NCBI GenBank assembly: GCA_015059045.1
Contig: SVBD01000004.1
Span: 22,773-86,772, forward strand
Direction of reading: 5' to 3'
DNA: 64,000 nt
From: Erysipelotrichaceae bacterium
GTDB taxonomy: Bacteria; Bacillota_I; Bacilli_A; RFN20; CAG-449
Under the pieces are notes generated by a model that saw only the letters and a program-made list of their open reading frames with translations, was not told where the DNA came from and searched no databases. The position numbers and the translations under genes were made by a program. The stretch's first letter is position 1. Each line of letters begins with the position of its first letter. Shown here in pieces: positions 19,449-63,944 of the stretch.

Positions 19449-22400
19449 ATGGACTCAACAAATACAATCAATAGTTGGAAAGAAAAGATTAAAGCTAATT
19501 TATTAAAAGAGCACTTTTATAGTTATTCGACTGACGAATCATTTACTTTACCTATTATTAACGATGATACTAATAATCTTTTTGATTTATTGCTAAAAGG
19601 TGAAACATTCATTTTCGGAGAATTAAATGATGTTACATTCATTGGAAAAGCAATGAGTGACTTTATTAACGAACATCAAGGTGTAAACATTTTATTTTCA
19701 AACAAAAATCAAATTAAGCAAAGAGAAATATTAAATAAAATTATTGAGATCAATAACAATTCAATTGCGAATAATTCGTACTCTATTGCTTATCTTTCGT
19801 TTGGGAAAATCACTTATCAATTAGATGGTAAAAAATTCCAAGCCCCTTTAGTTTTTATTCCTGTTAGAGTGTTTAAATCAACAAAGGATAATTATTATCG
19901 CGTTGTAAGATTAAACAAAGAAATTAAATTAAATACTCCATTAATTGAATTATTAAAAAAAGAAAGAAAAATTGATTTATCTTATCCAGTAAATAATAAA
20001 TTCAATTTAGGAGAATACTTATATTACTTATCAGTAAAAGTTAAACCAATTAACTGGATTGTTAATAATGAGAATTTCTTATCTTGTTTTGATTTTTCAT
20101 ATTACTCAGATTTGAAATTCATTAACGAAAACCAAAACATTATCGCCCAAAATCAATTGGTTAAAAGAATTGCTTATTTGAATTCTGAATTCTTCTCATT
20201 CAATCAAAAAGAATCTTTCCCATTAGATACTAAGTTTTTATCTTTATTAGATATGCAAAATGAGGAATATAATTTGTTAAGAACTATTTCTCGTGGTGAT
20301 AATTTATTAATTAGATGTGAACAACATTCAAATAAATATCACTTTATTACCAATGTAATTTTAACTTATTTATTAAACAACAAGCGCGTTCTTTTAGCTT
20401 ATTCAAATAACGAAGAGAAAAATGAACTACTTAATGAAATCAAAAAGAACTCTATTGAAAAATTTACTTTAGATTTATCTTTAGGATCAATTAACAAAAC
20501 TGACACTTTAGCGTCTTTAAGTAGTTATGATAAGTTAGTTCTTCCTTATAATAGTTTACACCCAATCGCAATTGATGAAGATGTAACTAGATACTATAAT
20601 CTTAAAAATTCATTCCAAGAAATCATCAATAGTTTGCGTACAACCAAAAATTCTTTAAATACATCAATTAATAAAATTATTAACAATTACTATGCTTTGG
20701 CAAAATATCCATTATTAGACGTTTCTTTCAAAGCTACAAATAAAATTGATTTAGAAGTATTGCAACAATATTTACTTCTTGTTAAGGAATTTGCAAATTC
20801 AATTGAAGCTTTAAATTGCCCTATCGAAGAACACCCTTTCTATGGATTCAATCGAAAAGTTATGAAGAAAGAAGACTACATACCATTAAAAAATAGCGTA
20901 ATTTCTCTTTCTGCAACTTTACAAGATGCAATTAATATTTATAACTATGGAGTTAAAAAATATCATCTTCCTTCAGTTTCTACCTTAAAGGAAATGAAAG
21001 CAGTCTTAAACATTTTAACTTTCGTAGATTATTATAAAGATCTTCCTATTGATTTTTTAAAGGACGATATTATTGATGAAACATATGATAAACTTAAAAA
21101 TCTATATTTAAAAATTGAACAAAATAATCAAAAATTAGATTCACTATGGGGAAATTATCCTTTACTAAAAAATATTTCTTTAGAGGAATTAGAACAAGCT
21201 AATAAATCAAAGAAAAAGAAAACTGCATATGCGTCTTTAAAGAAAAAATACCAAGTAAAACATCTTTCGACTAATGAATATGGATATTTGTTCGATTCTA
21301 TCTTGTCTTTATTAAGAGTTAAACAAAACTTAGAAGAAATTAAATTGAGTTTTAATCATAGTTACATAGAATTTTTAAGCAATCATACTTTTGAAGAGCT
21401 TAGAGAAATTATTAATAACATTAACAATTATCGTTACAACCTTAATTACTTAAGCGATAAGAGTTCATTTGATATTTGTTATTTAGTTAAAGATACTAAT
21501 ATTGAATCAAGTAAACACCGTCAAGCAATGCAATTAGCATTTAATTCAATTTTATCTAACAGTCAAATCGTCCAAAAATACTTTGACAAAAATGTATTTA
21601 ATTACGAAAAGATTAATTTAGATGTTTATTTAGAAAAAATTAATATGCTATCTTTAAACTTTGCTTCTGTTAATGATTATATCGATTACTATGTATCAAA
21701 ACATAAAATCAACAAGGCAATGAATATGCTTGGAGATAAGTTATTAGAGTGTGGTCATTATTCTAACTTTGAAAATATCTTCTTAAAGAGATTCTATTAT
21801 GACTTATTAACTGCAACACTTAAAAACAAGAAAATGTCAGATAGTCTAAGTAGAAAAAATATCTTTAGTTTATTAGAAAACTTCAAAGATAGCGATAATA
21901 AAAGAAAGAGTTTAATTGAAAAAATTATTTATAATAACTTCTCTAAAAATACAAGTACTACTCTTTACAACATTAAAGCAACCGAAGGAAATGAAATTAA
22001 AAAATTACTAAGTGATGAAAATTATTTCATTAATTTAGATTCTCTATGTGAGCTCTTCTCACAAAGTATTCATAATTTTAAACCATGTGTATTAACAAGT
22101 TATAAAAACGTTTCTTCGTTATTAAATAATAAAAATTATCAATTTGATGTCGTAATTTTATTATCTAATCGTTCAATGAAAATTAGAGACGTTCTTCCTT
22201 GCCTAGTTAAATCAAATCAATTATTAGTAATTGATCAAAAACCATTAACCGAAGATATTAGAAGTTCATTAATTACAAGTTCTAATCCTGCTAATTTAGT
22301 TTTTGCAAGCAAAAATACATTCAACGAAATCGTCTATACTCAAAGAGATCACTCTCTTGCATCGTTAATTCAAAATAATCTATATGATTTAGACTTTAAA

Positions 22401-23237
22401 GCATACTTAGTTGAAAAATTAAATGATTATGGATTTGATGTTGGAATGAATCGTGCATTAAATGACCAAGTCATTGATATCTTAGTCAAAGTTCCAAATT
22501 CTAATTCTTCAATTGCAATTATGGTCGATCACTTCCCTTACTATTCTCCAGAAGAAGCAAGTGAAGCGTTCTATTATCAAGAACAATTCTTAAAAGATAA
22601 AGGATATAGTCCATATCGAGTATTCACCGCTCTTTTCTTCATCGATGAAGAAAATGAATTTAACAAACTAATTGAATTCATCATCGCTCAATCCAAACTT
22701 ATTCCTGAAGCAGCTGTTAAGAAAAATACTATATTGTTGATGGATTACCTTTTCCCATTATTTAAAGATCCTAGACATGTATATTACGAATTAACTAACG
22801 TTAATAAACTAAATGAAAAATTAACTTCTTTCTTAGAAGAATGTGCTCCTATTTCTCTTGATGAAATACGTGTTGTATTTAAAGAGAATATTGAAGAAGA
22901 ACTTAACAATTTAGCTGCAAGCGGATTAATTGAAATTAAAGATAATTTTATTTTATTGATTGGCAAGAAAATTCGTTTTAGAAGAGTAGATAGAAACAAA
23001 GAATTCTATCGTCCTTTAGACCTTGTTAGCGACATTGAATACTATGATGCAATTTACGATATTATCAACTATAAATCTTCGTTAGATAAAGATACAATCA
23101 TTAAAATGATTCTTCTTTCTTTGGGCTATAAGAAAGCAAATAAAGAAAAATATGAGTTTGTCGAAGAAAGAATCGATTATTTATTAGAACAAAAAGTAAT
23201 TTTTATTGAAAATAATATTATTTATAAAAACATTTAA
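19449..23237 (+). CDS. DUF4011 / degenerate SF1 helicase / Vsr-like (MTES_1575) nuclease / DUF3320 protein (Hhe-like), catalytic motifs eroded
   Basis: WKEKI N-terminus, YLSFG..FQAPLVFIPV (DUF4011), PCVLTSY..V..FDVVI (pre-Walker B), and an IDILVK..IAIMVD..Y..GY..YRVF nuclease-like block. Confidence 0.75.
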   Translation: MDSTNTINSWKEKIKANLLKEHFYSYSTDESFTLPIINDDTNNLFDLLLKGETFIFGELNDVTFIGKAMSDFINEHQGVNILFSNKNQIKQREILNKIIEINNNSIANNSYSIAYLSFGKITYQLDGKKFQAPLVFIPVRVFKSTKDNYYRVVRLNKEIKLNTPLIELLKKERKIDLSYPVNNKFNLGEYLYYLSVKVKPINWIVNNENFLSCFDFSYYSDLKFINENQNIIAQNQLVKRIAYLNSEFFSFNQKESFPLDTKFLSLLDMQNEEYNLLRTISRGDNLLIRCEQHSNKYHFITNVILTYLLNNKRVLLAYSNNEEKNELLNEIKKNSIEKFTLDLSLGSINKTDTLASLSSYDKLVLPYNSLHPIAIDEDVTRYYNLKNSFQEIINSLRTTKNSLNTSINKIINNYYALAKYPLLDVSFKATNKIDLEVLQQYLLLVKEFANSIEALNCPIEEHPFYGFNRKVMKKEDYIPLKNSVISLSATLQDAINIYNYGVKKYHLPSVSTLKEMKAVLNILTFVDYYKDLPIDFLKDDIIDETYDKLKNLYLKIEQNNQKLDSLWGNYPLLKNISLEELEQANKSKKKKTAYASLKKKYQVKHLSTNEYGYLFDSILSLLRVKQNLEEIKLSFNHSYIEFLSNHTFEELREIINNINNYRYNLNYLSDKSSFDICYLVKDTNIESSKHRQAMQLAFNSILSNSQIVQKYFDKNVFNYEKINLDVYLEKINMLSLNFASVNDYIDYYVSKHKINKAMNMLGDKLLECGHYSNFENIFLKRFYYDLLTATLKNKKMSDSLSRKNIFSLLENFKDSDNKRKSLIEKIIYNNFSKNTSTTLYNIKATEGNEIKKLLSDENYFINLDSLCELFSQSIHNFKPCVLTSYKNVSSLLNNKNYQFDVVILLSNRSMKIRDVLPCLVKSNQLLVIDQKPLTEDIRSSLITSSNPANLVFASKNTFNEIVYTQRDHSLASLIQNNLYDLDFKAYLVEKLNDYGFDVGMNRALNDQVIDILVKVPNSNSSIAIMVDHFPYYSPEEASEAFYYQEQFLKDKGYSPYRVFTALFFIDEENEFNKLIEFIIAQSKLIPEAAVKKNTILLMDYLFPLFKDPRHVYYELTNVNKLNEKLTSFLEECAPISLDEIRVVFKENIEEELNNLAASGLIEIKDNFILLIGKKIRFRRVDRNKEFYRPLDLVSDIEYYDAIYDIINYKSSLDKDTIIKMILLSLGYKKANKEKYEFVEERIDYLLEQKVIFIENNIIYKNI

Positions 23238-46353: not shown

Positions 46354-47193
46354 ATGATGACTAAAATTAAGGCGCTTTACCACAGAATATCAAACTACTT
46401 TGAAAATCAAAGATTTTTCAAAATAATAAAAAGAATTCTCACTTTGCGCGGGGGAAATATGTATGCTCCCGCAGCGCTTTCTTTTTATTTGGTTCTATCA
46501 TTTATTCCGTGTTTACTGCTAGTCGAAATAATTTTATCGCTAATTAACATATTTTTCGATAAGAGTTTAAGCTTTATTTCTTTCATATTCGGATTAAATG
46601 CCATTTCTATATCGATTAAAGAAATAATTTCGTCATTAAACGCATTGGACTACCTATCTCTAGGTATCAGTTTTAGCGTCATTCTTTACCTTGCTTCAAA
46701 AGGTTTGACTTTTTTTGCATATCAAGTAAAAATTATGCATGGAATATCATACGAAGAACAGTCTTATTTCAAAAGGAGAATCATACCGTTAGGACTAACG
46801 ATTATTTCTTTATTAATATTATCATTTTTGGTCATTTTTTTAATAATTTTTGATAGTTTTATAAATAAGAATAATTTAAAATTTTATTCGTTTTTTGAAT
46901 ATATTTTCGTATTGTTTACTTTGTTTATTTTTATTGTTTTTTTGTATAAATTAACCACTCCAAAAAAGATAAAAATTACCAAATTTATACTTGGATCTTT
47001 ATTCTCAACAATTGGTATCGGTGGAGGTATTTTTATCTATTCTTATTATCTAAAAAACATCTCTTCGACCCTATCATATTTTGGTCCATTAAGTTCTGTT
47101 GCGCTTTTATTTTTAATTTTATTTTTCTCTTCTTATATCTTATTTTTTGGTGTGGAAATTAACATCTTAATATATGAAAAAAATAAATTATAG
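46354..47193 (+). CDS. YihY/BrkB family membrane protein
   Basis: AALSFYLVLSFIP, LASKG..F, FIVFLYK, ILGSLFST, YFGPLSSVALLFL. Confidence 0.85.
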   Translation: MMTKIKALYHRISNYFENQRFFKIIKRILTLRGGNMYAPAALSFYLVLSFIPCLLLVEIILSLINIFFDKSLSFISFIFGLNAISISIKEIISSLNALDYLSLGISFSVILYLASKGLTFFAYQVKIMHGISYEEQSYFKRRIIPLGLTIISLLILSFLVIFLIIFDSFINKNNLKFYSFFEYIFVLFTLFIFIVFLYKLTTPKKIKITKFILGSLFSTIGIGGGIFIYSYYLKNISSTLSYFGPLSSVALLFLILFFSSYILFFGVEINILIYEKNKL

Positions 47194-48213: not shown

Positions 48214-48322
48214 CTATATATCATCCTTTTTAAATAATGCTGTATGCATAATATCATAGGAAAAAATTAATAGCAAGTTTTTTTATTTTACAAATGTAAA
48301 AAATGATTTTTCAAGAAAAGAA

Positions 48323-48991
48323 TTATAATTCTTCTTTTGACATATCTTTTCTACAAACCATGATTTCTAAGTTACCATTACGGCATCTTAATTCATCAAC
48401 TAAATCTTTTTCTTTATTTACATCTTTTAATGTAACTGCGTATGTTAAAGCAAACATACTACCCATGTTCTTTGATTTAACTTTTAATAGTTCTACTTTA
48501 GTTGTATATTTTTTGAAAATATCATCAAAAACAGTTGGATAATCTAAATCTTCAGGGATCATTACTCTAATGAATTTTTCATTTTCTTTAATGCTGAAAA
48601 TATTAATGAAGGATAATCCAAGTAACGCTAAAGAAGCAACAATAGCAAAGATTACCGCATATCCTACATAACCCATACCTAATGCTAAACCAATTGCCAT
48701 ATCTAAGAAGATAACACAAATTTCTTTAGCGGTTCCTGGAGTAGAACGGAAACGAATTAAGCTAAATGCACCAGCAACAGCAACACCAGCGCCAATGTTT
48801 CCATTGACTAACATAATTACCATTGATACAGCAAGTGGGATTAATGCTGTAGTGATTACAAAACTCTTTGATGAAGAAGTTTTAATTGAAGTGATTAAAC
48901 TAAATCCAATACCAATAAGTAAAGCCGCAGCCATAATGATAATGAATTCTTTTAATCCTACTATCCCGTTAACAAAAATTGAATCAAACAT
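48323..48991 (-). CDS. DUF4956 domain membrane protein
   Basis: SKSFVIT, VNGNIGAGVAVAGAFSLIRFRS, MAIGLALGMG; C-terminal soluble ACT-like domain; 8-nt overlap with the VTC gene stop. Confidence 0.88.
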   Translation of the reverse strand: MFDSIFVNGIVGLKEFIIIMAAALLIGIGFSLITSIKTSSSKSFVITTALIPLAVSMVIMLVNGNIGAGVAVAGAFSLIRFRSTPGTAKEICVIFLDMAIGLALGMGYVGYAVIFAIVASLALLGLSFINIFSIKENEKFIRVMIPEDLDYPTVFDDIFKKYTTKVELLKVKSKNMGSMFALTYAVTLKDVNKEKDLVDELRCRNGNLEIMVCRKDMSKEEL

Positions 48992-49688
48992 ATAACAAAT
49001 TCTCCTTTTCTTTTAATTCTTTTTTATAAGCCGTTCCATATTTAGAAAACGACGATTTATAAATTTTTTCTTGACTTAATTTTCTTACTAGCCACATTGG
49101 AAGAGCCATTGAAGATTTAACCTCCATAATGACAACGTCATCGTCTACCAATTTAGTTCCTTCCAAACTTGAGTTAAGACTTAAATCTTCGGTTCTATAT
49201 CTCGCATTTGTATCAAAAGTAATTCTTAAGTCACTATTTGGATCCACATAAGCATCTCGATCATAAATAATTAACATTTTTGGTTTTAAATCTCTATAGA
49301 AATCAATTAAATATGCAATTTCTCTACCGATTTGCGTATCATTTTCACTATGCTTTGTAGCAATCCATTTCTTACATTCTTCTTCTGTCAAAGAAATTCT
49401 TCTCTTATAGACTACGTGGTCCATTTTCTTTTTAATTTCTAAGAATCCGGTTTTACCTTCTTTTAACAAACCATAACTCCTTAGCCTTAATTTTTCTTTA
49501 TATTTTGGTTTTTCAATTGAACGACGGATTAATAAATATTTATCTGTATCAAAATACAAACTTTGAATAGTTACTTTACCGTGTTTATCTTCAACCATAT
49601 GGTCTTTTAAGAAATCAACGAGTAATTTATGTTGTTTACGATTAATTACATATTTAATTTCTGTTCTCATAAAAGTAAATATCGGCAT
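48984..49688 (-). CDS. VTC-domain polyphosphate polymerase (TTM/CYTH fold)
   Basis: RTEIKY (ExK), SLYFDT, KEKLRLRSY, FLEIKKK, YKRR, YDRDAY, LRITFD, MEVK, FSKY; RBS AAAGGAGG. Confidence 0.92.
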   Translation of the reverse strand: MPIFTFMRTEIKYVINRKQHKLLVDFLKDHMVEDKHGKVTIQSLYFDTDKYLLIRRSIEKPKYKEKLRLRSYGLLKEGKTGFLEIKKKMDHVVYKRRISLTEEECKKWIATKHSENDTQIGREIAYLIDFYRDLKPKMLIIYDRDAYVDPNSDLRITFDTNARYRTEDLSLNSSLEGTKLVDDDVVIMEVKSSMALPMWLVRKLSQEKIYKSSFSKYGTAYKKELKEKENLLYV

Positions 49689-49720
49689 ATTAATCCTCCT
49701 TTCTTTTAACAATTATTAAT

Positions 49721-52306
49721 TTATTTAATCTCTGTTAAATTAATTTCTTCTGTGTATAAATTATATCTATTTCTTTCTGATAATTCACCTAAAGTAAATA
49801 AAGTGCAATCTCCAACGAAATCAACAGATATTTTTTCAGTTTGATTTCCTTCGCCACTACCACCATTATTAAAAATAATGTAATTAAATTCATTAATATC
49901 TATATCAAAATAGTAAATGTCTTTACCATTTCTTGTACCCGCTTTTACTAATCGTTGTCCTGGCCAACCATTATCACCATAATCTCCATATACATAGCAA
50001 TATACTTCACTCCAACGAACTGCGTTTTCAAAATAAATTCTCTTAATATTTTGAACGTTACTATTTCCGCCAGAGTTTCCAGAATCATTTCCACCATTAT
50101 TTGTCAAAACGTTATCTACCACTCTATTTTTACTTAAAATATAATCACTAAATGAAATATTTCCATCATTTAATGAGAATGAGTGATTTGAATATGTACT
50201 TTTAGCTTTATTATAGAATGAGTTAAATGTAGTATTTTTAACCCAATCGGAATTTCTAATAGCTAATACTGCTTCTATATACTTATCTTTTGAAGGGTTA
50301 TTAGAACTAGACAAAATTGTTTTTGAGAACAATTTATTTCTAATTGTATCACCATTAATATCTTTAGTTGATAATGGGGATTCGTTTTTCATCTTATCAG
50401 TCATTCCCCAGTCTCTTGTAATACCAAAACAGCGATCATTATCAATTGGGATAATTGTTGCCTTTCCATCTGTTCTACGTATATAAATCATATAGTTGTT
50501 ATAGTTATATCTCATGCCATCAGGATTTCCAATGTAATAAGTAATAGCTTCCTTAATTGCAAATTGTTCTAAATCCATTACTTGTTCAATTTGTTCATAA
50601 CTACCACTATTTGTTGTGTTAATTAAATTTTTTAATAATGGACTATCGTATTCGACTGTTGTACAGGTTTTTCTTTCATAAGCAGGAATGTTTTTACCAG
50701 CTTGATCTCCGATTCCAATTCTATTACCTTGAATAGAATCGCTACTCCAGTCAGCACCACTATTAGATCTACCAGAACCAGATCCCCAACCACATTCATA
50801 GTAGTCTCCGTAGTTTTTACCTTCAACTCCATAAGTACCAGCTTTTTCTTCGTCCCAAGTGCCCATGTTTAAATATGTTTTATTTTCATTTTTTAACGAA
50901 CGTTTAATTAAAGATTTACTTGCAGGTTCATATAAAGTACAAAGTCCCATTGAATGTTCTTTGTTATTGTTATCAACTTGAACTATAGAAAAATCTGCCA
51001 AACCAATATGAGATGAAATAATTCCACTTGCTTGATAAAGATATGATGCGTAAATTTCTTTAATATGGCTTTCATCATAATTTTTGTTCCATTTAACATC
51101 AACGCCGGATAATGAGTTCAAAAACTCGCGATCTTCATAAGTTAAGTTACCATATTTAGATACATAACCAGCATCATAAATTGATGTATCGCTAAATGTT
51201 TCATCAAACGCTAATTTGAAGTGGTTTAAATTTAATCCATTATCACCCCAAATAGACTGTCTAGATGTATTACCTTTTTGTCTAATACCAACATTTTCAA
51301 ATTCCCATGTAAATGTCTTATCATAGTTTTTCATTGTAATTACAACTTTATCGCAACGACGATAAGTTTGTACCTTACCACCAGTTTTTTGGTCATCCGA
51401 TAATTTATTAAGTTCTGAGTTACTTACATACGCTTTAATTGAAATTTTATTTCCTAAATTAAATAAATCTTCAAATGTGACATTTTCAATTGCATCAATT
51501 TTTGGAGTATCAAAATTAGGTGCTTCTAATTTAAAAGAATTATCCTCTTCAGGAATAGAACTTGATTCTTCCGAAGAAGTATCGCTAGATTCAAAAATAC
51601 TTGAAATTTCACTTGTTACTATTTCAGTAATAATAGATGAAACAACTTCACTTGTAACTATTTCGCTTGTTTGAATACTTTCAATAATACTAGTTGTAAT
51701 ATTTGAAGTAACTTCTGAGATTACTTCACTAGAGATATTTTCACTAGATAATTCGCTCGAAATAACAGTTGATACTACAGAGGAAATATATTCACTTGAA
51801 ATAATTTCACTTGTTTCAACACTATCAATAATTGATGTTGTAATTTCAGAAGATATTTCTGATATAACTTCGCTAGAGATGTTTTCACTAGTCTCTTCAT
51901 TAGAACTTGATTCGTTTGAAGTTTGGTTACTACTTGTTTGATATCCAGGAATACTCCAAGATGGCTTAGCCGTACTAGTATCTTCGCTTGTTTCTTCGCC
52001 ACTTGAATCTTCTGAAGTTTCTTTACTTGATGTTTCTTCATTCATAGAAGAATTGCTACTAAATTCACTAGATGAAATATCGCTAGAAAAAATAGATGAA
52101 ATCAAAGAAGAAATAGAAGTATTACTTGTTTCTTCACTTGTATTTTCACTTAATATATCTTCTGAAGATTTTTCTTCACTTGTCGTGTTATTTGCTTCTT
52201 CGCTAGTAGTTTCACTTGACGAAGAATTGCTCGGATTAATAATTTGTAAGTATCCACAACTTGTTAATAAGAATGTTAATACTGCTAAACTTAAGAACTT
52301 TTTCAT
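49721..52306 (-). CDS. CotH-family kinase lipoprotein with Ser/Thr/Glu-rich stalk and C-terminal CBM26-like module
   Basis: Lipobox LTSC; GIRQKGNTSR, HFKLAFD, IKEIYAS, GNPDG..NYNNYMIY, IIPIDNDRCFG; C-terminal IYFEN..W..VYCYVY..GWPG..IIFNNG..QT. Confidence 0.85.
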   Translation of the reverse strand: MKKFLSLAVLTFLLTSCGYLQIINPSNSSSSETTSEEANNTTSEEKSSEDILSENTSEETSNTSISSLISSIFSSDISSSEFSSNSSMNEETSSKETSEDSSGEETSEDTSTAKPSWSIPGYQTSSNQTSNESSSNEETSENISSEVISEISSEITTSIIDSVETSEIISSEYISSVVSTVISSELSSENISSEVISEVTSNITTSIIESIQTSEIVTSEVVSSIITEIVTSEISSIFESSDTSSEESSSIPEEDNSFKLEAPNFDTPKIDAIENVTFEDLFNLGNKISIKAYVSNSELNKLSDDQKTGGKVQTYRRCDKVVITMKNYDKTFTWEFENVGIRQKGNTSRQSIWGDNGLNLNHFKLAFDETFSDTSIYDAGYVSKYGNLTYEDREFLNSLSGVDVKWNKNYDESHIKEIYASYLYQASGIISSHIGLADFSIVQVDNNNKEHSMGLCTLYEPASKSLIKRSLKNENKTYLNMGTWDEEKAGTYGVEGKNYGDYYECGWGSGSGRSNSGADWSSDSIQGNRIGIGDQAGKNIPAYERKTCTTVEYDSPLLKNLINTTNSGSYEQIEQVMDLEQFAIKEAITYYIGNPDGMRYNYNNYMIYIRRTDGKATIIPIDNDRCFGITRDWGMTDKMKNESPLSTKDINGDTIRNKLFSKTILSSSNNPSKDKYIEAVLAIRNSDWVKNTTFNSFYNKAKSTYSNHSFSLNDGNISFSDYILSKNRVVDNVLTNNGGNDSGNSGGNSNVQNIKRIYFENAVRWSEVYCYVYGDYGDNGWPGQRLVKAGTRNGKDIYYFDIDINEFNYIIFNNGGSGEGNQTEKISVDFVGDCTLFTLGELSERNRYNLYTEEINLTEIK
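51600..51900 (-). repeat. Intragenic tandem duplication, 144-nt (48-aa) period
   Basis: SENISSEVISEISSEITTSIIDSVETSEI vs SENISSEVISEVTSNITTSIIESIQTSEI; DNA anchors at 51725 and 51869. Confidence 0.8.
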
Positions 52307-52328: not shown

Positions 52329-52377
52329 AAAATATTTTAAGAAATAAAAAAAGTATTTATGTAAAACATAAACACTT
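52329..52377 (-). terminator. Terminator upstream of the cotH operon, followed by a probable extended -10 promoter
   Basis: Minus strand AAGTGTTTATGT-TTT-ACATAAATACTT+T5, then TG-A-TATAAA upstream of the GGTGA RBS. Confidence 0.55.
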
Positions 52378-52384
52378 ATTTTAA

Positions 52385-53581: not shown

Positions 53582-54112
53582 TTATTTACCAAAATGTTTT
53601 TCAAAATTTTCAATAGCCTTTTGAATAACTTTATTTGCTTCGCTTCTTCCTAAAATTTTAGTAATTGCGGTTTTCTTACCCTCTAATTGCTTATAAACTT
53701 TGAAGAAGTGACAAATTTCATCTAATAAATGTTGTGGTAAATCAGTGATATCTTGATAAACGCTTAATGAAGGATCATCCGCACAAATTGAAATAATTTT
53801 TTCATCTGATTGATGTGAGTCAATCATTTTAATTACTCCAATTGGATAACATCTAACTAAGCAAAGTGGTGTAATTGGTTCTTGACACATTACTAATACA
53901 TCAAGAGGATCGTTATCACCTGCATAAGTATGAGGAATAAACCCATAGTTTTCTGGATAGTGAGTAGAAGTATATAAAACTCTATCTAGAATCAATCTTC
54001 CTGTTTCTTTATCTAATTCATACTTCATCTTACTTCCTTTTGAAATTTCAATTGAAACCACAAAACTATCAGGAGTTACCCTATCTTTATTAATATCTTT
54101 CCAAATATTCAT
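53582..54112 (-). CDS. ppa: Family I inorganic pyrophosphatase
   Basis: IEISKGS..KYE, LDRVL, YPENYGFIP, DNDPLDVLV, DEKII, FFKVYK.LE. Confidence 0.96.
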   Translation of the reverse strand: MNIWKDINKDRVTPDSFVVSIEISKGSKMKYELDKETGRLILDRVLYTSTHYPENYGFIPHTYAGDNDPLDVLVMCQEPITPLCLVRCYPIGVIKMIDSHQSDEKIISICADDPSLSVYQDITDLPQHLLDEICHFFKVYKQLEGKKTAITKILGRSEANKVIQKAIENFEKHFGK

Positions 54113-58074: not shown

Positions 58075-58230
58075 TTCCTTTTCCTCTCGCTTTCATTTTA
58101 ATAATTTATATTAACAAATTCAATTCTAATTAAAAATTTAATTAGAGAAGGATTTATAATTACTATTAGATATTGCTCACTTTAAATAAATATGATAGAT
58201 TTTTCTTATAAGAAGATATAGGTGATACAT

Positions 58231-60549
58231 ATGAGAAAACAATTAAATTTTAACTGGGAGTTTATTCCTCAATTTGAAGAAAGTTATCTTTCAACTTTTC
58301 CAAAAGAAGCAATCAAAGTAAATATTCCTCATAATGTTGAAGATCTTCCATACAACTATTTTAATGAGAAAATATATCAAAAGATTTCTACATATAGAAA
58401 AGAGTTCACTTTAGAGAACTATAAAAATCAAATTGTTATTTTACGATTTGAAGCCTTTATGGTTAAAGCAAAAATCTATTTAAACAAAGAATATTTAGGT
58501 GAATATGTTTCTTCTTATTCTCCTGTCGAAATAGATATAAGCAAATATGCAAAAGAAGAAAATGAATTAATCGTTGTTTTAGATTCTCACGAAAACGATG
58601 AAGTTCCTCCTTTTGGTTATGCAGTAGATTACCTAACTTTTGGAGGAATCTATCGTGAAGTAAGTGTATCAATTAATCCTAAAGTTTATATCCAAAAAAT
58701 ATTAGTAAATGGTGATTCTAAAGGAAATGTTAACATTAAGCCTTTAATAGAAAATAATAACGAAGAATACGATATTGAATATCAAGTTTTATATAACGAA
58801 AAGGTAGTAAAAGAAAGTAAAACAAGCGAGTTTTCCTTAGAAAACCCACTTCTTTGGGATATTTCTTCTCCTAATTTATACACATTGATTGCAACTCTTT
58901 CTTCTAAATATGGCAAAAGCACTTATACAACTAGATTTGGGTTTAGAGATGCTATATTTACTAATAAAGGTTTTTATCTAAATGGAAAGAAGATTAAACT
59001 AGTTGGATTAAATAGACATCAATCTTATCCTTATGTAGGTTACGCTATGCCAAAAAGTGCTCAAGAGGATGACGCTAATATTTTAAAGTATGAAGCCGGA
59101 ATAAATATTGTTAGAACATCTCACTATATGCAAAGTGAACACTTCTTAAATAGATGTGATGAAATCGGTCTATTAGTAATTAATGAAATTCCAGGTTGGC
59201 AACATATATCTAAAAAGGAAGTTTGGAGAAATAAACATTATCAAAATGTAGAACAAATGGTAATTGAAGAATACAATCACCCTTCTTTAGTTGGACATGG
59301 AGTTAGAATTGATGAATCACAAGATGATCACAAACTATATTTAAAATCTAATAAAATAGTTCATGACCTAGATCCAAATAGACAAACTCTAGGAGTTAGA
59401 AATTTTAAAAATAGCGAACTACTTGAAGACATATATGCATATAACGATTTTGTTTGTAGTGATATGACTAAAGGTTTAGATAATCCTAAAAAAATCAAAA
59501 CCAAAAATCATCCTTATTTAGTAAGTGAATACTTAGGACATATGGAACCAACTAAAGCTACAGATAGTTCAAAGCAAAGAATATATCACGCTTTAAGACA
59601 TGCGTTAGTTATTAATGATAACTTTAAATATGATAATATCTGCGGAGCTATTGGCTGGTGCTTTGTAGATTACTATACTCATAATGATTTTGGTTCTGGA
59701 GATCGTATTTGCCCACACGGGGTCTTTGATATGTATCGTAATAAAAAATACGCCGCAAGTATTTATCAAAGTCAACAAGATGAAATTCCAGTTTTAGAAG
59801 TGTTAAGCAATATGAAACCTGGTGATTTCCCTGAATCATCACTAATGGATGTTTACATTGCTACTAACGCTGATTATGTTGAATTATATAAAAACGATGA
59901 ATATGTAACAAAATTATATCCTAACACTAAACAATTTAAACATTTACCTCATCCATTAATTCTAGTGGACGATATTATTGGTGAAACCTTTAAAGACTCT
60001 CGCTTTAGTTTAAGAGACGGAAAGAAAATTGGAAAACTTCTTTCTTATGTTGCTTTCCATGGATTTAGTAAATTGTCAATTAAACAAAAGTTATCATTAG
60101 GTAAGTTGATTATCAAATATCGTTTATCTTATTCCTCACTAGTTGACTTATATAATACTCATGTTGCCGCTTGGGGAGGAAAAGCAAAAACATATACTTT
60201 CAAAGCTTATAAAGATGGCAAAGTGGTAAAAGAACAAACTCTAGGACCATCAACAACATACTCTTTAAAAGTAACATGCTCTAAACAAGAACTAATTAAT
60301 GAAGATACTTATGACGTAACTAGAGTAACTCTTCAATATGTAGATGAATTCGATAATGTTTTAAATTACGCAAATATGCCATTTTTACTAGAAACTGAAG
60401 GAGAAATTCAAATAATTGGTCCTAAAATGGTATCCTTGTTAGGTGGTCAATTATCAGTATATATTAAATCAAAATCAAAACCTGGGAATGGTAAACTAAC
60501 CATTAAAAACGAAACAATAAATGAAACTATAGATTTTATTGTTAAATAA
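58231..60549 (+). CDS. GH2 glycoside hydrolase (beta-galactosidase-like)
   Basis: FGGIYREV, GLNRHQSYPYVG, VRTSHY, NHPS, IDES (acid/base), VSEY (nucleophile). Confidence 0.92.
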   Translation: MRKQLNFNWEFIPQFEESYLSTFPKEAIKVNIPHNVEDLPYNYFNEKIYQKISTYRKEFTLENYKNQIVILRFEAFMVKAKIYLNKEYLGEYVSSYSPVEIDISKYAKEENELIVVLDSHENDEVPPFGYAVDYLTFGGIYREVSVSINPKVYIQKILVNGDSKGNVNIKPLIENNNEEYDIEYQVLYNEKVVKESKTSEFSLENPLLWDISSPNLYTLIATLSSKYGKSTYTTRFGFRDAIFTNKGFYLNGKKIKLVGLNRHQSYPYVGYAMPKSAQEDDANILKYEAGINIVRTSHYMQSEHFLNRCDEIGLLVINEIPGWQHISKKEVWRNKHYQNVEQMVIEEYNHPSLVGHGVRIDESQDDHKLYLKSNKIVHDLDPNRQTLGVRNFKNSELLEDIYAYNDFVCSDMTKGLDNPKKIKTKNHPYLVSEYLGHMEPTKATDSSKQRIYHALRHALVINDNFKYDNICGAIGWCFVDYYTHNDFGSGDRICPHGVFDMYRNKKYAASIYQSQQDEIPVLEVLSNMKPGDFPESSLMDVYIATNADYVELYKNDEYVTKLYPNTKQFKHLPHPLILVDDIIGETFKDSRFSLRDGKKIGKLLSYVAFHGFSKLSIKQKLSLGKLIIKYRLSYSSLVDLYNTHVAAWGGKAKTYTFKAYKDGKVVKEQTLGPSTTYSLKVTCSKQELINEDTYDVTRVTLQYVDEFDNVLNYANMPFLLETEGEIQIIGPKMVSLLGGQLSVYIKSKSKPGNGKLTIKNETINETIDFIVK

Positions 60550-60643
60550 AAAATTTAATTTTGGAAATAATTTTTATTGTAGAAAAAATATTTGAAGTTA
60601 TATAATAACTTTGTCTAAAAAAGACGGAAAAGAGAAATTAATT

Positions 60644-61837
60644 ATGGAAAGAAAAGTTGGAACAATTTCAATGGGTGTTCGTTGCCCTATTATTAGAGAA
60701 GGAGACAATCTAGTCGATATCGCTTCTAAAAGCGTTATTGAGGCAAGTGAAAGCATTGGCTTATCGATTTCAAATAAAGACGTAATCGCATTAACAGAAT
60801 CAATTGTAGCAAGAGCCCAAGGCAACTATGCAACAATTGATGATATCGCAAATGATGTTAAAGCAAAATTCAATTGTGATACATTAGGCGTTATCTTCCC
60901 TATTCTTTCTAGAAATAGATTTGCAATTTGCTTAAAGGGTATTGCTAAAAGCGTTAAGAAAATTGTTTTAATGTTAAGTTATCCTAGTGATGAAGTAGGT
61001 AATGCTTTACTTACTTATGATCAATTAGATAAAGCGGGTATTAATCCTTATTCTGATGTTTTATCACTAGAAAAATATCGTGAATTATTTGGGTATGGAA
61101 AACACGAATTTACTGGTGTTGATTATGTTGAGTATTACTCTTCATTAATTAAAGAAGCTGGTGCTGAAGTAGAAATCGTCTTCGCAAATCAAGCTACTGC
61201 TATTTTAAATTACACAAAGAATGTTTTAACTTGTGACATTCACACAAGAGCTAGAACAAAACGCATTTTAAAAGAAGCTGGCGCTACAAAAGTATTAGGA
61301 ATGGATGATATTTTAAATAGTTCAATCAATGGTTCTGGATTTAATGAAAAATATGGTTTATTAGGTTCAAATAAATCTACAGAGGACAAAATCAAACTTT
61401 TCCCTAGAGATTGCCAATCACTAGTAGAAGATATTAAAGCTAAAATCTTTGAATTAACAAACAAAGATGTTGAAGTAATGATCTATGGTGATGGTGCTTT
61501 CAAAGATCCTCAAGGTAAAATTTGGGAATTAGCAGACCCTGTAGTTTCTCCTGCTTACACAAGTGGATTAGTTGGTACACCAAATGAATTAAAATTAAAA
61601 TATCTTGCTGACAACGATTATAAAGATTTATCTGGAAACGAATTAAAACAAGCTATCTCACAAAGCATTAAAGCTAAAGGGGGTAATCTAGTTGGTAATA
61701 TGGCCTCTCAAGGAACTACCCCAAGACAACTAACTGATTTAATTGGTTCTCTATGTGACTTAACAAGTGGTTCAGGAGATAAGGGAACTCCAATCATTTT
61801 AATTAAAGGTTACTTTGATAACTACACAAATGATTAA
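60644..61837 (+). CDS. F420-0:gamma-glutamyl ligase (CofE)-like protein
   Basis: GVRCPII.EGD, ESIVARAQG, ILSRNRF, YGDGAFKDP..KIWELADP, GSGDKGTP. Confidence 0.82.
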   Translation: MERKVGTISMGVRCPIIREGDNLVDIASKSVIEASESIGLSISNKDVIALTESIVARAQGNYATIDDIANDVKAKFNCDTLGVIFPILSRNRFAICLKGIAKSVKKIVLMLSYPSDEVGNALLTYDQLDKAGINPYSDVLSLEKYRELFGYGKHEFTGVDYVEYYSSLIKEAGAEVEIVFANQATAILNYTKNVLTCDIHTRARTKRILKEAGATKVLGMDDILNSSINGSGFNEKYGLLGSNKSTEDKIKLFPRDCQSLVEDIKAKIFELTNKDVEVMIYGDGAFKDPQGKIWELADPVVSPAYTSGLVGTPNELKLKYLADNDYKDLSGNELKQAISQSIKAKGGNLVGNMASQGTTPRQLTDLIGSLCDLTSGSGDKGTPIILIKGYFDNYTND

Positions 61838-61874: not shown

Positions 61875-63944
61875 CTATAAATAATTATCTCTTAAATATT
61901 GGGCAAATAAATCTCTTGCGTATCCAACTCCATATTCTAAGGTTAGATTTTTAACAACTGTTAAATTATTATATTTATAATCACTAGAATAGCTATCTGT
62001 AATAATATAATATATTTTGTTTTCGTCTACTTCCGAAGCATCTATCTTACTATAAACATAATAATTATTGTTACTTGAATTAATAAATTTATTAATCAAA
62101 TCGTTCCCTTTAATAGAACATAACACAATATCGTTTTCAAATGGAAGTAGTGCGTATACATCGCCATATTTCACTTCTCCACCACTTAAATCATATGGAG
62201 TTCTCGTACTAATAAATCCTCCACCTAGTACTGGAGAATATGTATTATTTTCGCCAATAATCTCTATTCCTTTTTGATAATATAATTCACTCAGTTTACT
62301 TTTGACTTTTGAACTATTCATATATGGAACATTTCTTCCTATTATTTCTGATTGGATACTTCCATATTTATTTTTCTCATACCACGAATCTATTTCATTC
62401 ATCACTTCATCTTCTTCTGAGAATGCGCTATAAGAAGAGACTGCATTTGACATAGTCGACATTGATACATAATAGTCATTGCTTAGTGAATCATATTCAC
62501 AATTTATTGTTGCAACCGTAAAAGAATCTCCATTCCCTCTATTTTGAAGGTGCCATACTCCTTTCGAATCATAAAAACTATACTTTTGATGCGAATGACC
62601 TTCTAAAACTAAATCCACATATGTTCCACTTAATTCATTAACATCATAGTAACTTAAATATGATACGCCATTATTCTTTTTATAATCTCCATCATGAAGA
62701 GATAGAATAATAAAATCAGCACCTAAATCTTTTAATGTTTGAGAATCCTTTTTGATTTGCTCAGTTAATTTGTCACCATACAAGAAATAGATATTATCAA
62801 CTTTAGAAGAAGAAATTGAAGAATAAACATTTCCAATTGAACCAATAATACCAATTTTGACACCATTTCTGGAAACCAATTTATAGGGTTTACAATATTC
62901 TGGTGATTCACCAGTTGATCTATATCTTATATTGTTAGCTAAAAGAGGAATATCTAAATATTCGTCGTGATTAATTAATTTTTGTTCTCCCCAATCATAT
63001 TCGTGATTACCAAGTGTTAATGATTCATAACCATTTTGAATTAAGAAATCATCAATATTAAAACCATTAGATAACCCAGCTTCAGCAGTACCTTGATAAA
63101 TATCTCCTTGGTCAATAAAAATATTATATTGATCTTTTGTTGCTGCTACAGATTTCATTCTGCTAGTCAATTTTGATAGTCCTGGATAATCTTCTATTTC
63201 TTTTACTTGTCCATGAATATCATTCGTTGCAAATACTTGAATGTCAAAATTTTTATTATCTCTAGAATAATTTGTTTTTTCATAATTAATAGATAAAGAA
63301 TTAATAATTACTTCTCTAGGCGAGTAAAAACTTATATACGAAGGATAGTCTCCTTCAAAACTGACTTTATAATCTTGGCCAATAACTTTTATATCAACAC
63401 TGTAGTCGTTAACATTATCAATATAGTTATTAGATGTACGATATTTTAAATAACCAAATCCACTTAAATTTTGTAATGTATCATCGCTATTATTCACTAC
63501 ATCATAATTAATAGTAAATGATTTAATATTACCTAAATTTGTTTCTTCAGCATTTGTAATCGAGCCGGTTTTTCCAAGGAAAACGTGGCCCAAAGAGTTT
63601 TTTGCCTTGTTATATTCAAAGGTTATTTCATCAACAGCGCTTTTAAGATTTTCATAGTTATCTAAAGCTGTTGGTTTATTAGTTGAATCTAACACTAACA
63701 CCTTTTCTTCGCCATTAGAAATTTCACTACTAATTGATTCTTCACTTGAATAAACTTCACTAGTTGCATTGAAACTATTTGAAGAAGAAGCGCTTAACGA
63801 AGCTTCTTCGCTAGTTATTTTTTCAGACGAAAAAGATTCGCTAGTAGAATCTTCGCTAGACGTATTTTGATTAAAATTTAAACACCCCGATAGCAATGGT
63901 GCTATTAGGGAAAGTGTCAAAGCTAACTTAAGTTTACTTTTCAT
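61875..63944 (-). CDS. 5'-nucleotidase / 2',3'-cyclic phosphodiesterase lipoprotein with Ser/Glu-rich stalk
   Basis: Lipobox LSGC; ATNDIHG, DQGD, GNHEYD, LSLH, GHSH; C-terminal substrate domain LPFEN. Confidence 0.9.
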   Translation of the reverse strand: MKSKLKLALTLSLIAPLLSGCLNFNQNTSSEDSTSESFSSEKITSEEASLSASSSNSFNATSEVYSSEESISSEISNGEEKVLVLDSTNKPTALDNYENLKSAVDEITFEYNKAKNSLGHVFLGKTGSITNAEETNLGNIKSFTINYDVVNNSDDTLQNLSGFGYLKYRTSNNYIDNVNDYSVDIKVIGQDYKVSFEGDYPSYISFYSPREVIINSLSINYEKTNYSRDNKNFDIQVFATNDIHGQVKEIEDYPGLSKLTSRMKSVAATKDQYNIFIDQGDIYQGTAEAGLSNGFNIDDFLIQNGYESLTLGNHEYDWGEQKLINHDEYLDIPLLANNIRYRSTGESPEYCKPYKLVSRNGVKIGIIGSIGNVYSSISSSKVDNIYFLYGDKLTEQIKKDSQTLKDLGADFIILSLHDGDYKKNNGVSYLSYYDVNELSGTYVDLVLEGHSHQKYSFYDSKGVWHLQNRGNGDSFTVATINCEYDSLSNDYYVSMSTMSNAVSSYSAFSEEDEVMNEIDSWYEKNKYGSIQSEIIGRNVPYMNSSKVKSKLSELYYQKGIEIIGENNTYSPVLGGGFISTRTPYDLSGGEVKYGDVYALLPFENDIVLCSIKGNDLINKFINSSNNNYYVYSKIDASEVDENKIYYIITDSYSSDYKYNNLTVVKNLTLEYGVGYARDLFAQYLRDNYL

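Follow-up and report, generated by a model that had tools for sequence, protein, structure and literature searches.

A conserved VTC-DUF4956 gene pair beside a predicted CotH-family surface lipoprotein in an uncultured gut Bacilli lineage

Genes for a CotH-family protein, a polyphosphate polymerase and a DUF4956 protein have been described, together with a DUF4832 gene, as accessory genes that directly adjoin pelDEADAFG in streptococci, clostridia and bifidobacteria (Whitfield et al. 2020, PMC7112168). In Streptococcus intermedius the three correspond to SIR_1594, SIR_1593 and SIR_1592, of the CotH, VTC and DUF4956 families respectively (bioRxiv 2024; mBio 2025, PMC12345266), and the membrane protein was assigned to MgtC with an ACT domain. 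Deletion of the DUF4956 gene or of the CotH gene altered Pel levels and reduced aggregation, the authors of the mBio paper propose a role in phosphate metabolism, and their survey reported the trio as absent outside the Pel locus (PMC12345266). According to the preprint, the polyphosphate (polyP) may stay cytoplasmic (bioRxiv 2024). VTC-domain genes also lie with genes for CotH, a HEAT-repeat protein and a glycosyltransferase in the Clostridium perfringens pathogenicity locus NELoc-2 (PMC11677781), and a 2025 review assigns VTC-type polyP polymerases to eukaryotes and the PPK enzymes to prokaryotes (PMC12526157). Here we describe three genes in a stretch of 64,000 nucleotides, hereafter the window, from contig SVBD01000004.1 (positions 22,773 to 86,772; assembly GCA_015059045.1) of an Erysipelotrichaceae bacterium. 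Three open reading frames (ORFs) run head to tail on the minus strand, from 52306 to 48323, and belong to the CotH, VTC and DUF4956 families. An earlier note on this DNA knew of no experimental characterisation of such a triad, a statement that the S. intermedius deletion mutants have put out of date (PMC12345266). The trio is already published, and the window is a further instance of it in a new setting: an uncultured low-GC (28% GC) gut Bacilli lineage with a stalked CotH lipoprotein that carries a predicted starch-binding module, and without pel genes (a Pfam scan of 26 of the larger ORFs of the window besides the triad found none). New here are the VTC-DUF4956 pair as a conserved unit, its varying surface partner, the probable remote kinship of DUF4956 with MgtC and the pel-free setting. 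The genes and their junctions are as follows.

48323..48991, minus strand: DUF4956 gene, encoding a membrane protein of 222 amino acids (aa) with five helices and a C-terminal ACT/ferredoxin-like domain (Pfam, model, profile comparison)
48984..48991, minus strand: 8-nt overlap of the vtc stop and the DUF4956 start, ATGTTTGA (read from the sequence; translational coupling)
48984..49688, minus strand: vtc gene, encoding a soluble protein of 234 aa with a VTC domain (triphosphate tunnel metalloenzyme), putatively a polyP polymerase (Pfam, profile search, alignment)
49689..49720, minus strand: 32-nt spacer between cotH and vtc, in which the ribosome-binding site, AGGAGG, lies 6 nt ahead of the vtc ATG
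49721..52306 including the stop codon, minus strand: cotH gene, encoding a predicted lipoprotein, 861 aa long, from the CotH family of atypical kinases (Pfam, AlphaFold2 model, Foldseek)

The three genes probably form a compact operon whose two parts differ in history. The co-directional layout, the 32-nt gap with its strong ribosome-binding site and the 8-nt overlap are exactly as the earlier note had described them. Across genomes CotH is no fixed third member but one of several surface partners that can replace one another. In a neighbourhood survey anchored on VTC (80 species-representative loci at 45–57% identity, mostly from gut and rumen Clostridia and Bacilli), DUF4956 followed VTC directly and on the same strand in 79 loci, the remaining one being divergent. 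CotH was present in 2 of the 80 when searched with a broad profile built from six divergent CotH proteins, and in none with a narrower profile. The junction is also conserved: among 87 VTC/DUF4956 pairs from other genomes, distant ones included, the VTC stop and the DUF4956 start overlap in 60, with an 8-nt overlap in 31 of these, and in 85 of the pairs the two genes are no more than 30 nt apart. Adjacency and common direction extend to six further loci with distant VTC homologues (27–45% identity, from a plasmid collection), one of them in an actinomycete. The conserved, translationally coupled unit is the VTC-DUF4956 pair and not the triad, and the case for a partnership between these two proteins is strong. 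The divergent locus (L075, 6877-10699) comes from a metagenome-assembled genome (MAG) labelled Methanomethylophilus and has a CotH-like ORF after DUF4956; a cluster of bacterial type in an archaeon-labelled bin reflects either mis-binning or horizontal transfer.

The third gene beside the pair varies and comes from a short list of predicted extracytoplasmic proteins, among which CotH is frequent in several phyla. Unsupervised clustering of the neighbours in the 80 loci returned two recurrent families. A Cthe_2159 protein of ~610 aa (carbohydrate-binding beta-helix, Pfam E 1e-89) is found in 47 loci and directly follows DUF4956 in 41, and all 46 full-length copies are predicted to be secreted, 36 by a lipobox and 10 by a hydrophobic signal-like N-terminus. 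In about 44 of the 80 loci the pair adjoins genes for a response regulator of the OmpR type and a histidine kinase of the HisKA type, and an OmpR-type two-component system also accompanies it in three of the six distant ones. CotH shares a cluster with the pair in four of those six, in both gene orders. On Pseudobutyrivibrio pNP95 the order is CotH, VTC, DUF4956, within an exopolysaccharide cluster; on a Planococcus plasmid VTC, DUF4956 and CotH are joined by a hypothetical gene, a HEAT-repeat gene and a glycosyltransferase gene; Nonomuraea has VTC, DUF4956, CotH; and on an Enterococcus faecalis plasmid a response regulator and a histidine kinase stand between DUF4956 and a CotH lipoprotein gene. 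Together with the window, these four loci are counter-examples to the view that the trio occurs only at pel loci. In the other two distant loci a two-component system accompanies the pair, which is followed by a Cthe_2159 lipoprotein in Paenibacillus and by a PLD-like protein in Acetoanaerobium. This last partner (L144, 9501-11057 (+)) is a PLD/cardiolipin-synthase-like membrane protein rather than a secreted lipoprotein and may hint at a lipid-linked product. Because CotH and the pair have been juxtaposed repeatedly and independently, in both gene orders, they are probably functionally connected where they co-occur; because CotH can be swapped for a beta-helix binder or a phosphoesterase, the pair would supply something generic to the surface or envelope. 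A link between the pair and surface proteins is plausible on these grounds.

The earlier note had tied CotH to VTC-DUF4956. Recurrence in pel loci of Streptococcus, Bifidobacterium and Clostridia, and in Pseudobutyrivibrio, Planococcus, Nonomuraea and E. faecalis, speaks for this tie, but the lineage of the window itself does not bear it out. A CotH-anchored survey covered 52 loci at 27–55% identity, from MAGs labelled Anaeroplasmataceae, Acholeplasmatales, Erysipelotrichaceae and Bacilli and from the cultured Anaeroplasma bactoclasticum ATCC 27112. In none of them does VTC or DUF4956 lie within 8 kb of the CotH orthologue, so the CotH family of the window can work without the pair nearby. Likewise, in a NusG-anchored survey of 80 relatives (61–90% identity) neither VTC nor CotH was found upstream of rpmG-secE-nusG at any locus. 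The triad is arranged exactly as in the window on contigs with 99% and 81% identical CotH, and was seen only at CotH identities of at least 81%. A more distant relative (59% identity for CotH, 73% for DUF4956), whose gene order matches that of the window along about 16 kb, has its CotH-CBM26 gene at the same site; its VTC-DUF4956 pair lies 13 kb off, directly upstream of a gene for a 697-aa Metallophos lipoprotein, the window orthologue of which (61875-63944, minus strand) encodes a 689-aa Metallophos/5'-nucleotidase-type protein. The position of the pair in the collinear relative indicates a move of the pair between two sites, each of them next to a surface lipoprotein gene. An F420-ligase-like gene (60611-61837, plus strand) and a GH2 glycosidase gene (58222-60549, plus strand) are, with the Metallophos gene, collinear with the relative's contig (L135-L137). 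A second VTC-DUF4956 pair upstream of the window's Metallophos gene, just beyond the end of the window, was considered and rejected, a DUF1295 gene standing at that place on the window's own 135-kb contig (L147). The collinear relative also has a second, shorter CotH paralogue (L134, 2871-4184 (+), 437 aa, Pfam CotH E 2e-29) between its serine dehydratase and pyrophosphatase genes; the corresponding interval of the window holds no gene, and tandem CotH paralogues are also found in L104-L106, including Anaeroplasma bactoclasticum.

The VTC protein, read from the ATG at 49688, is VTC domain throughout (Pfam PF09359, matched from position 2 to 232 of the 235-position profile at E 3.2e-42, with a bit score of 145 where the cut-off is 23). 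Hydrophobic segments are absent from it, in line with the soluble enzyme foreseen in the earlier note. When a profile of 41 VTC homologues was compared with the PDB, it matched the catalytic domain of yeast Vtc4 (3g3q) at E 1e-8 and Vtc2 and Vtc3 more weakly, at about 1e-5; the single window sequence showed no significant similarity to Vtc4. Eight bacterial homologues at 27–57% identity (Firmicutes and one actinomycete) share 25 invariant residues, which include R8, R68/R70, R144, R155, S215/K216 and three alternating acid/base strand motifs, E10-x-K12, E84-x-K86 and E189-x-K191. The ExK and basic motifs are intact, as had been claimed. Aligned to Vtc4, R8-x-E10-x-K12 falls on the R-x-x-x-K-Y first strand, with K12 at the position of its lysine, and R68/R70 falls on the R-x-R strand; the catalytic lysine of Vtc4 is K200. 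The Vtc2 and Vtc3 subunits of yeast are catalytically inactive. The better match of the profile to the Vtc4 catalytic domain than to these two speaks, with the invariant tunnel residues, for the polyP-making role proposed below. As judged from its residues, the pattern is that of a working tunnel enzyme, whereas the direction of the reaction, polymerising or hydrolysing, lies beyond what sequence can tell. Bacterial VTC-domain proteins number in the thousands (3,384 clusters were scored), and the NCBI name of the family, 'polyphosphate polymerase domain-containing protein', is an annotation and not a test.

The DUF4956 protein matches Pfam PF16316 (E 2.4e-13, 50.6 bits against a 30.6-bit cut-off), as do all 42 aligned homologues. 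Its model, with a predicted local distance difference test (pLDDT) score of 79, shows five helices and, C-terminal to them, a beta-alpha-beta-beta-alpha-beta domain. Foldseek returned weak ACT/PII/ferredoxin-like matches to this C-terminal domain and left the membrane domain unmatched, a weak negative given that the program performs poorly on small helical bundles. Across the 42 homologues, lysines and arginines average 1.6, 3.1 and 2.9 per loop on one side of the membrane and 0.3, 0 and 0 on the other, and this clear positive-inside pattern gives an N-out/C-in topology. A GAxSxxRFR motif is invariant even in the most distant members; in this topology the motif and the ACT-like domain face the cytoplasm, the side on which VTC resides.

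Two hints connect DUF4956 with MgtC, a single database name, 'YhiD', and the CDD assignment of the streptococcal homologue. A comparison of the single Escherichia coli YhiD sequence with the DUF4956 profile (hhalign) was not significant, and Pfam MgtC (PF02308) scored the window protein far below threshold (E 7.8), its matches to the homologues being sub-threshold too. A jackhmmer search from YhiD, checked round by round against profile drift, swept in all DUF4956 proteins. The surveyed loci also contain true MgtC/YhiD-family ORFs (L089 13381-14142, L098 5862-6608 and L118 14487-15218; phmmer with YhiD, E 1e-29 to 1e-37), none of which adjoins a VTC gene. Out of 93 DUF4956 ORFs, 21 were matched at E<1e-3, the strongest at 1.2e-8, by a four-sequence MgtC profile made of YhiD and these three ORFs, with the first unrelated ORF at E 0.02, and an hhalign comparison of the MgtC and DUF4956 profiles gave a probability of 84.8% and E 6.5e-6 over 163 columns, spanning helices 2-5 and the C-terminal domain. 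On this evidence DUF4956 is probably a remote relative within the MgtC/YhiD superfamily and not a member of the family. ORFs of ~250 aa about 2 kb upstream of nusG in seven further loci (L157, L172, L173, L213, L214, L217 and L218) weakly match the DUF4956 profile (E about 1e-5) and are probably also MgtC-like.

The CotH protein, counted from the ATG at 52306, begins with MKKFLSLAVLTFLLTSC and can be divided into four parts.

52256..52306, minus strand: signal peptide with an LTSC lipobox, MKKFLSLAVLTFLLTS-C17 (read from the sequence)
51521..52255, minus strand: low-complexity Ser/Glu/Thr/Ile-rich linker (stalk), aa 18-262, 245 aa (composition)
50096..51529, minus strand: CotH kinase domain, about aa 260-737 (Pfam, AlphaFold2 model, Foldseek, alignment)
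49724..50047, minus strand: C-terminal beta-sandwich carbohydrate-binding module (CBM) of the starch-binding CBM25/26 type (Pfam, Foldseek)

The lipobox fits the [LVI][ASTVI][GAS]C pattern, and the family consensus at this place is LLxSC; a lipobox is present in 30 of 55 relatives, and a further 11 have a hydrophobic N-terminus. The outward-facing position given to CotH in the earlier note is upheld by this prediction. The stalk is 33% Ser and 17% Glu and holds 19 S-x-E motifs, as against 2 in the other 599 residues. Its length differs among close relatives, in proteins of 702-869 aa, and a tandem-repeat search found no tandem repeats in the DNA that encodes it. S-x-E is the motif favoured by the related secretory kinase Fam20C. 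Given this preference, and given that Ser-rich repeats are phosphorylated by Bacillus CotH, the kinase could act on its own stalk.

The Pfam match to CotH (PF08757, E 7.9e-10) clears the 23.8-bit cut-off with 39.2 bits but is partial, taking in positions 44-265 of the 322-position profile. An AlphaFold2 model built on 36 homologues (pLDDT 89) found Bacillus cereus CotH (5jd9/5jda) as its top Foldseek matches, with E 6e-13 and a target TM-score of 0.71. Searches of PDB chains by sequence, with the single protein and with a profile, gave chance antibody matches only, up to E 10, so the kinase assignment rests on Pfam and the fold search. The conserved core comprises G345 (RQKGNTS), K364, D578, N594-x-D596 and D622-x-D624. 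Only five columns are invariant in six CotH proteins at 13–30% identity, namely G345 of the R/K-G-N-S/T-S/T motif, D578, N594, D596 and D622; the K/D/N/D catalytic motifs can be regarded as intact, as the earlier note had it. In Bacillus subtilis CotH, mutation of the catalytic D228 or of the metal-binding D251 inactivates the kinase. The spacing of N594-x-D596 and D622 is close to that of these two residues, in a comparison of spacing only. The C-terminal domain matches Pfam CBM26 (E 2.3e-11) and, by Foldseek, CBM25 structures (2lab, 2c3w), including one solved with maltotetraose; it is predicted to be a starch-binding module. NCBIfam and PADLOC scans of CotH, VTC and DUF4956 gave no match for any of them, and in view of the PADLOC result the triad is not a known defence system.

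Taken together, we tentatively explain the locus by a membrane-coupled, polyP-making VTC-DUF4956 pair that serves interchangeable surface partners, a reading to which we give somewhat less than an even chance. The pair is widespread, mobile and translationally coupled, and would unite a cytoplasmic tunnel enzyme of the VTC type with an MgtC-like membrane protein. Its most likely job, we infer, would be the synthesis of polyP from ATP on the cytoplasmic side of the membrane. With its cytoplasmic RFR motif and ACT-like domain, DUF4956 would offer VTC a docking site and would then relay the polyP chain, or the effect of that chain, to the cell exterior. The altered Pel levels and aggregation of the S. 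intermedius mutants that lack DUF4956 or CotH (PMC12345266) speak for this explanation, as do the near-obligate linkage of the pair and its mobility. Such an export is plausible, and the best indirect evidence for an outward-directed product is that the partners of the pair are commonly secreted. A surface lipoprotein would then work with this product outside: in the window, a CotH-family kinase with a starch-binding module and a Ser/Glu stalk, and elsewhere a Cthe_2159 beta-helix lipoprotein or a metallophosphoesterase lipoprotein.

Several results weigh against this explanation. The literature searched yielded no biochemical study of any bacterial VTC-domain protein, and no phenotype was reported for the VTC deletion in S. 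intermedius (PMC12345266). No VTC-complex chain is among the 50 Foldseek matches listed for the DUF4956 model, all of which have E > 0.001, and the pair is absent within 8 kb of all 52 CotH orthologues. Of the earlier note's view of DUF4956, the membrane partner is well supported and the channel is not: the protein is apparently of MgtC type, unlike the transmembrane subunits of yeast VTC, and characterised MgtC is, as cited in PMC12345266, a regulator of ATP synthase and PhoR and not a channel. With an OmpR-type two-component system beside many of the pairs, a regulated response to stress or phosphate is as good a fit as an export machine. The main rival, a role confined to the cytoplasm, in phosphate and energy homeostasis, is on balance unlikely and yet a serious possibility. 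VTC would make or trim internal polyP, DUF4956 would be an MgtC-like regulator or sensor whose ACT-like domain binds a metabolite and which might act on the histidine kinase next to it, on ATP synthase or on the transport of phosphate, nothing would be exported, and the secreted neighbours would merely be co-regulated in an envelope or phosphate-stress regulon. The MgtC homology of DUF4956 with the CDD assignment of the streptococcal protein, the ACT/PII-like C-terminal fold, the frequent two-component system and the phosphate-related neighbours (the Metallophos/5'-nucleotidase lipoprotein in the relative, the pyrophosphatase two genes upstream in the window) all agree with it, as does the proposal of the mBio authors (PMC12345266). 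What it leaves unexplained is the consistent presence, directly downstream, of a lipoprotein from a few specific families (46 of 46 Cthe_2159 proteins secreted), the recurrence beside the pair of CotH kinases, which have no known role in phosphate scavenging, and the place of the pair inside exopolysaccharide clusters. That VTC is not a polymerase at all, and is instead another tunnel enzyme such as a tri- or polyphosphatase, or one acting on a nucleotide or a phosphorylated envelope precursor, we regard as improbable. PMC9582702 counts triphosphatases, RNA triphosphatases and cyclases among the triphosphate tunnel metalloenzymes, a range of activities in keeping with such an enzyme. So is the remoteness of the likeness to Vtc4, reached by profile and not by single sequence. 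Yeast Vtc4 owes its processivity to an SPX domain and a transmembrane channel, both of which the bacterial protein lacks. Against a non-polymerase stand the clear membership of VTC in the Pfam VTC family and not in CYTH, the retained basic tunnel residues and the residue aligned with the catalytic lysine of Vtc4, and also the NCBI family name, for what an annotation is worth.

The two remaining alternatives concern the place of CotH. A coincidence, in which a mobile VTC-DUF4956 cassette landed between cotH and rpmG in a recent ancestor and CotH-CBM acts alone as a glycan-binding surface kinase or adhesin, is to our minds quite unlikely. It would account for the empty CotH- and NusG-anchored surveys (0 of 52 and 0 of 80), for the collinear relative that keeps its CotH-CBM26 site while its pair lies by the Metallophos gene, and for the confinement of the triad to close relatives, but not for the way in which CotH and the pair have joined independently, in either gene order, in six or more further lineages, far beyond chance for a gene that we estimate at about one copy per genome at most. 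The operon-like packing in the window, with its short gap, strong ribosome-binding site and no internal terminator, also argues against a chance landing. The earlier note's own mechanism, exported polyP as the phosphoryl donor that replaces ATP for an extracellular CotH kinase, is very doubtful. It would account for a kinase that works outside the cell and for the recurrent CotH linkage, and it sits well with the intact catalytic core and with the 19 S-x-E motifs as possible substrates in the protein's own stalk. However, B. cereus CotH binds Mg2+/AMP according to the title of its structure entry (5jda), most pairs have non-kinase partners (Cthe_2159 in 47 of 80 loci) and most CotH genes of the lineage have no adjacent pair. 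We also know of no kinase-fold enzyme that uses polyP. Use of polyP by CotH is speculation, and a CotH-specific use is unsupported.

If polyP is indeed the product of the pair, and above all if it is exported, VTC-DUF4956 would constitute a new bacterial polyP pathway, and two large families, so far uncharacterised, would gain a function. The supply of secreted CotH kinases and Cthe_2159 proteins could then be understood, as could the company that these genes keep with Pel and other exopolysaccharide loci and with a C. perfringens pathogenicity locus. A bolder form, which we consider unlikely as it stands though worth stating, is that the pair is a widespread bacterial polyP synthase-translocase, apart from PPK1/PPK2, that delivers polyP to the outer face of the membrane for interchangeable lipoproteins (CotH, Cthe_2159, metallophosphoesterases) to use, bind or trim. 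This would amount to an unrecognised extracytoplasmic polyP pathway in Firmicutes and Actinobacteria, which in the wall-less-type gut lineage of the window would decorate or energise a glycan-binding surface kinase. A practical gain of the analysis is a sharper target, a two-gene pair in place of a triad.

Two further features delimit the transcription unit.

about 52340..52383, minus strand: AT-rich hairpin and U-run, likely the intrinsic terminator of the upstream alpha/beta-hydrolase gene (folding)
48214..48322, minus strand: 109-nt spacer from DUF4956 to rpmG (L33)-secE-nusG, with promoter-like hexamers and no terminator-like hairpin

The hairpin (-13 kcal/mol, z = -5.35; none of 200 shuffles folds equally well) agrees with the terminator that the earlier note had placed upstream of cotH and is likely the 5' limit of the triad's transcription unit. 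A consensus terminator scan overlooked it because its stem is AT-rich and the scan requires at least 3 GC pairs. The probable promoter upstream of cotH could not be confirmed, since promoter-like hexamers occur at chance frequency in such AT-rich DNA (29 found, 28 +/- 5.7 expected in shuffled sequence at 28% GC). Folding revealed neither an internal terminator within the triad nor a terminator-like hairpin 3' of the DUF4956 gene (z = +0.45), so that read-through into rpmG-secE-nusG is possible. The hexamers in the downstream spacer are TTGCTA-17-TATTAT with a TG and TTGAAA-18-TAAAAT, and the layout of this spacer is identical in the 99%-identical contigs L150/L151.

The triad is flanked on one side by alpha/beta hydrolase, pyrophosphatase and serine dehydratase genes, and on the other by rpmG-secE-nusG-rplKAJL-rpoBC. 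The pyrophosphatase gene (family I, inorganic; 53582-54112, minus strand) lies two genes upstream of the triad, a position kept in relatives L133, L134 and L150, and is probably a housekeeping gene; pyrophosphate primes yeast Vtc4. A BrkB/YihY-family membrane protein gene on the opposite strand (46354-47193, plus strand) splits the usually contiguous secE-nusG-rplKAJL between nusG and rplK, and does so in L150 as well. Elsewhere in the window, a 1262-aa protein (19449-23237, plus strand) combines DUF4011 with an MTES_1575 restriction-endonuclease-like domain in an architecture of the helicase-nuclease type and might be a defence or repair gene.

The closest counterpart of the window triad is the set of Gram-positive pel accessory genes, which comprises the same three families in the same order, CotH, VTC, DUF4956. 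In both, CotH is secreted, VTC is cytoplasmic and DUF4956 consists of a transmembrane domain and an intracellular ACT-like domain. Whereas the pel cassette includes a DUF4832 gene, the window triad has none and stands between housekeeping genes, and its CotH, a predicted lipoprotein, bears a Ser/Glu stalk of 245 aa and has a CBM25/26 module in place of the FN3 domain of pel-linked CotH. The gene list of NELoc-2 is resembled by the Planococcus plasmid, where VTC, DUF4956 and CotH are followed by hypothetical, HEAT-repeat and glycosyltransferase genes; the window has neither of the latter two beside its triad. The clusters of gut and rumen Clostridia defined here, with a two-component system, VTC, DUF4956 and Cthe_2159, share the VTC-DUF4956 core followed by a secreted partner, whereas the window lacks both the two-component system and Cthe_2159 beside the triad.

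At the level of the single proteins, DUF4956 resembles MgtC/YhiD/SapB (PF02308) in having a multi-helix N-terminal membrane domain with Gly-rich helices and an ACT-like C-terminus, and differs from it in its own invariant GAxSxxRFR motif and its obligate pairing with VTC. The window CotH has the fold and the catalytic-core motifs of Bacillus CotH (5jd9/5jda) and of the Fam20C-type kinases. Its identity to the Bacillus protein is only 13%, with no sequence-level match in the PDB, and it is a predicted extracytoplasmic lipoprotein with a CBM, from an uncultured gut Bacilli lineage and without a spore-coat context, whereas Bacillus CotH acts inside the mother cell, where ATP is present. According to PMC7821199, Bacillus CotH phosphorylates Ser-rich repeat proteins; the window CotH bears a Ser-rich stalk of its own. 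The eukaryotic VTC complex (Vtc4 with Vtc1/2/3; PDB 3g3q, 7ytj and 8i6v) shares the VTC catalytic domain and the tunnel residues with the window enzyme, which has neither an SPX domain nor transmembrane helices. Its membrane partner is also of another kind, MgtC-like with five helices and an ACT-like domain, as against the three-helix, DUF202-type channel subunits of yeast. In yeast, the coupling of polyP synthesis to translocation is established. The yeast complex and the window pair are alike in their plan, a cytoplasmic catalytic domain partnered with a membrane component.

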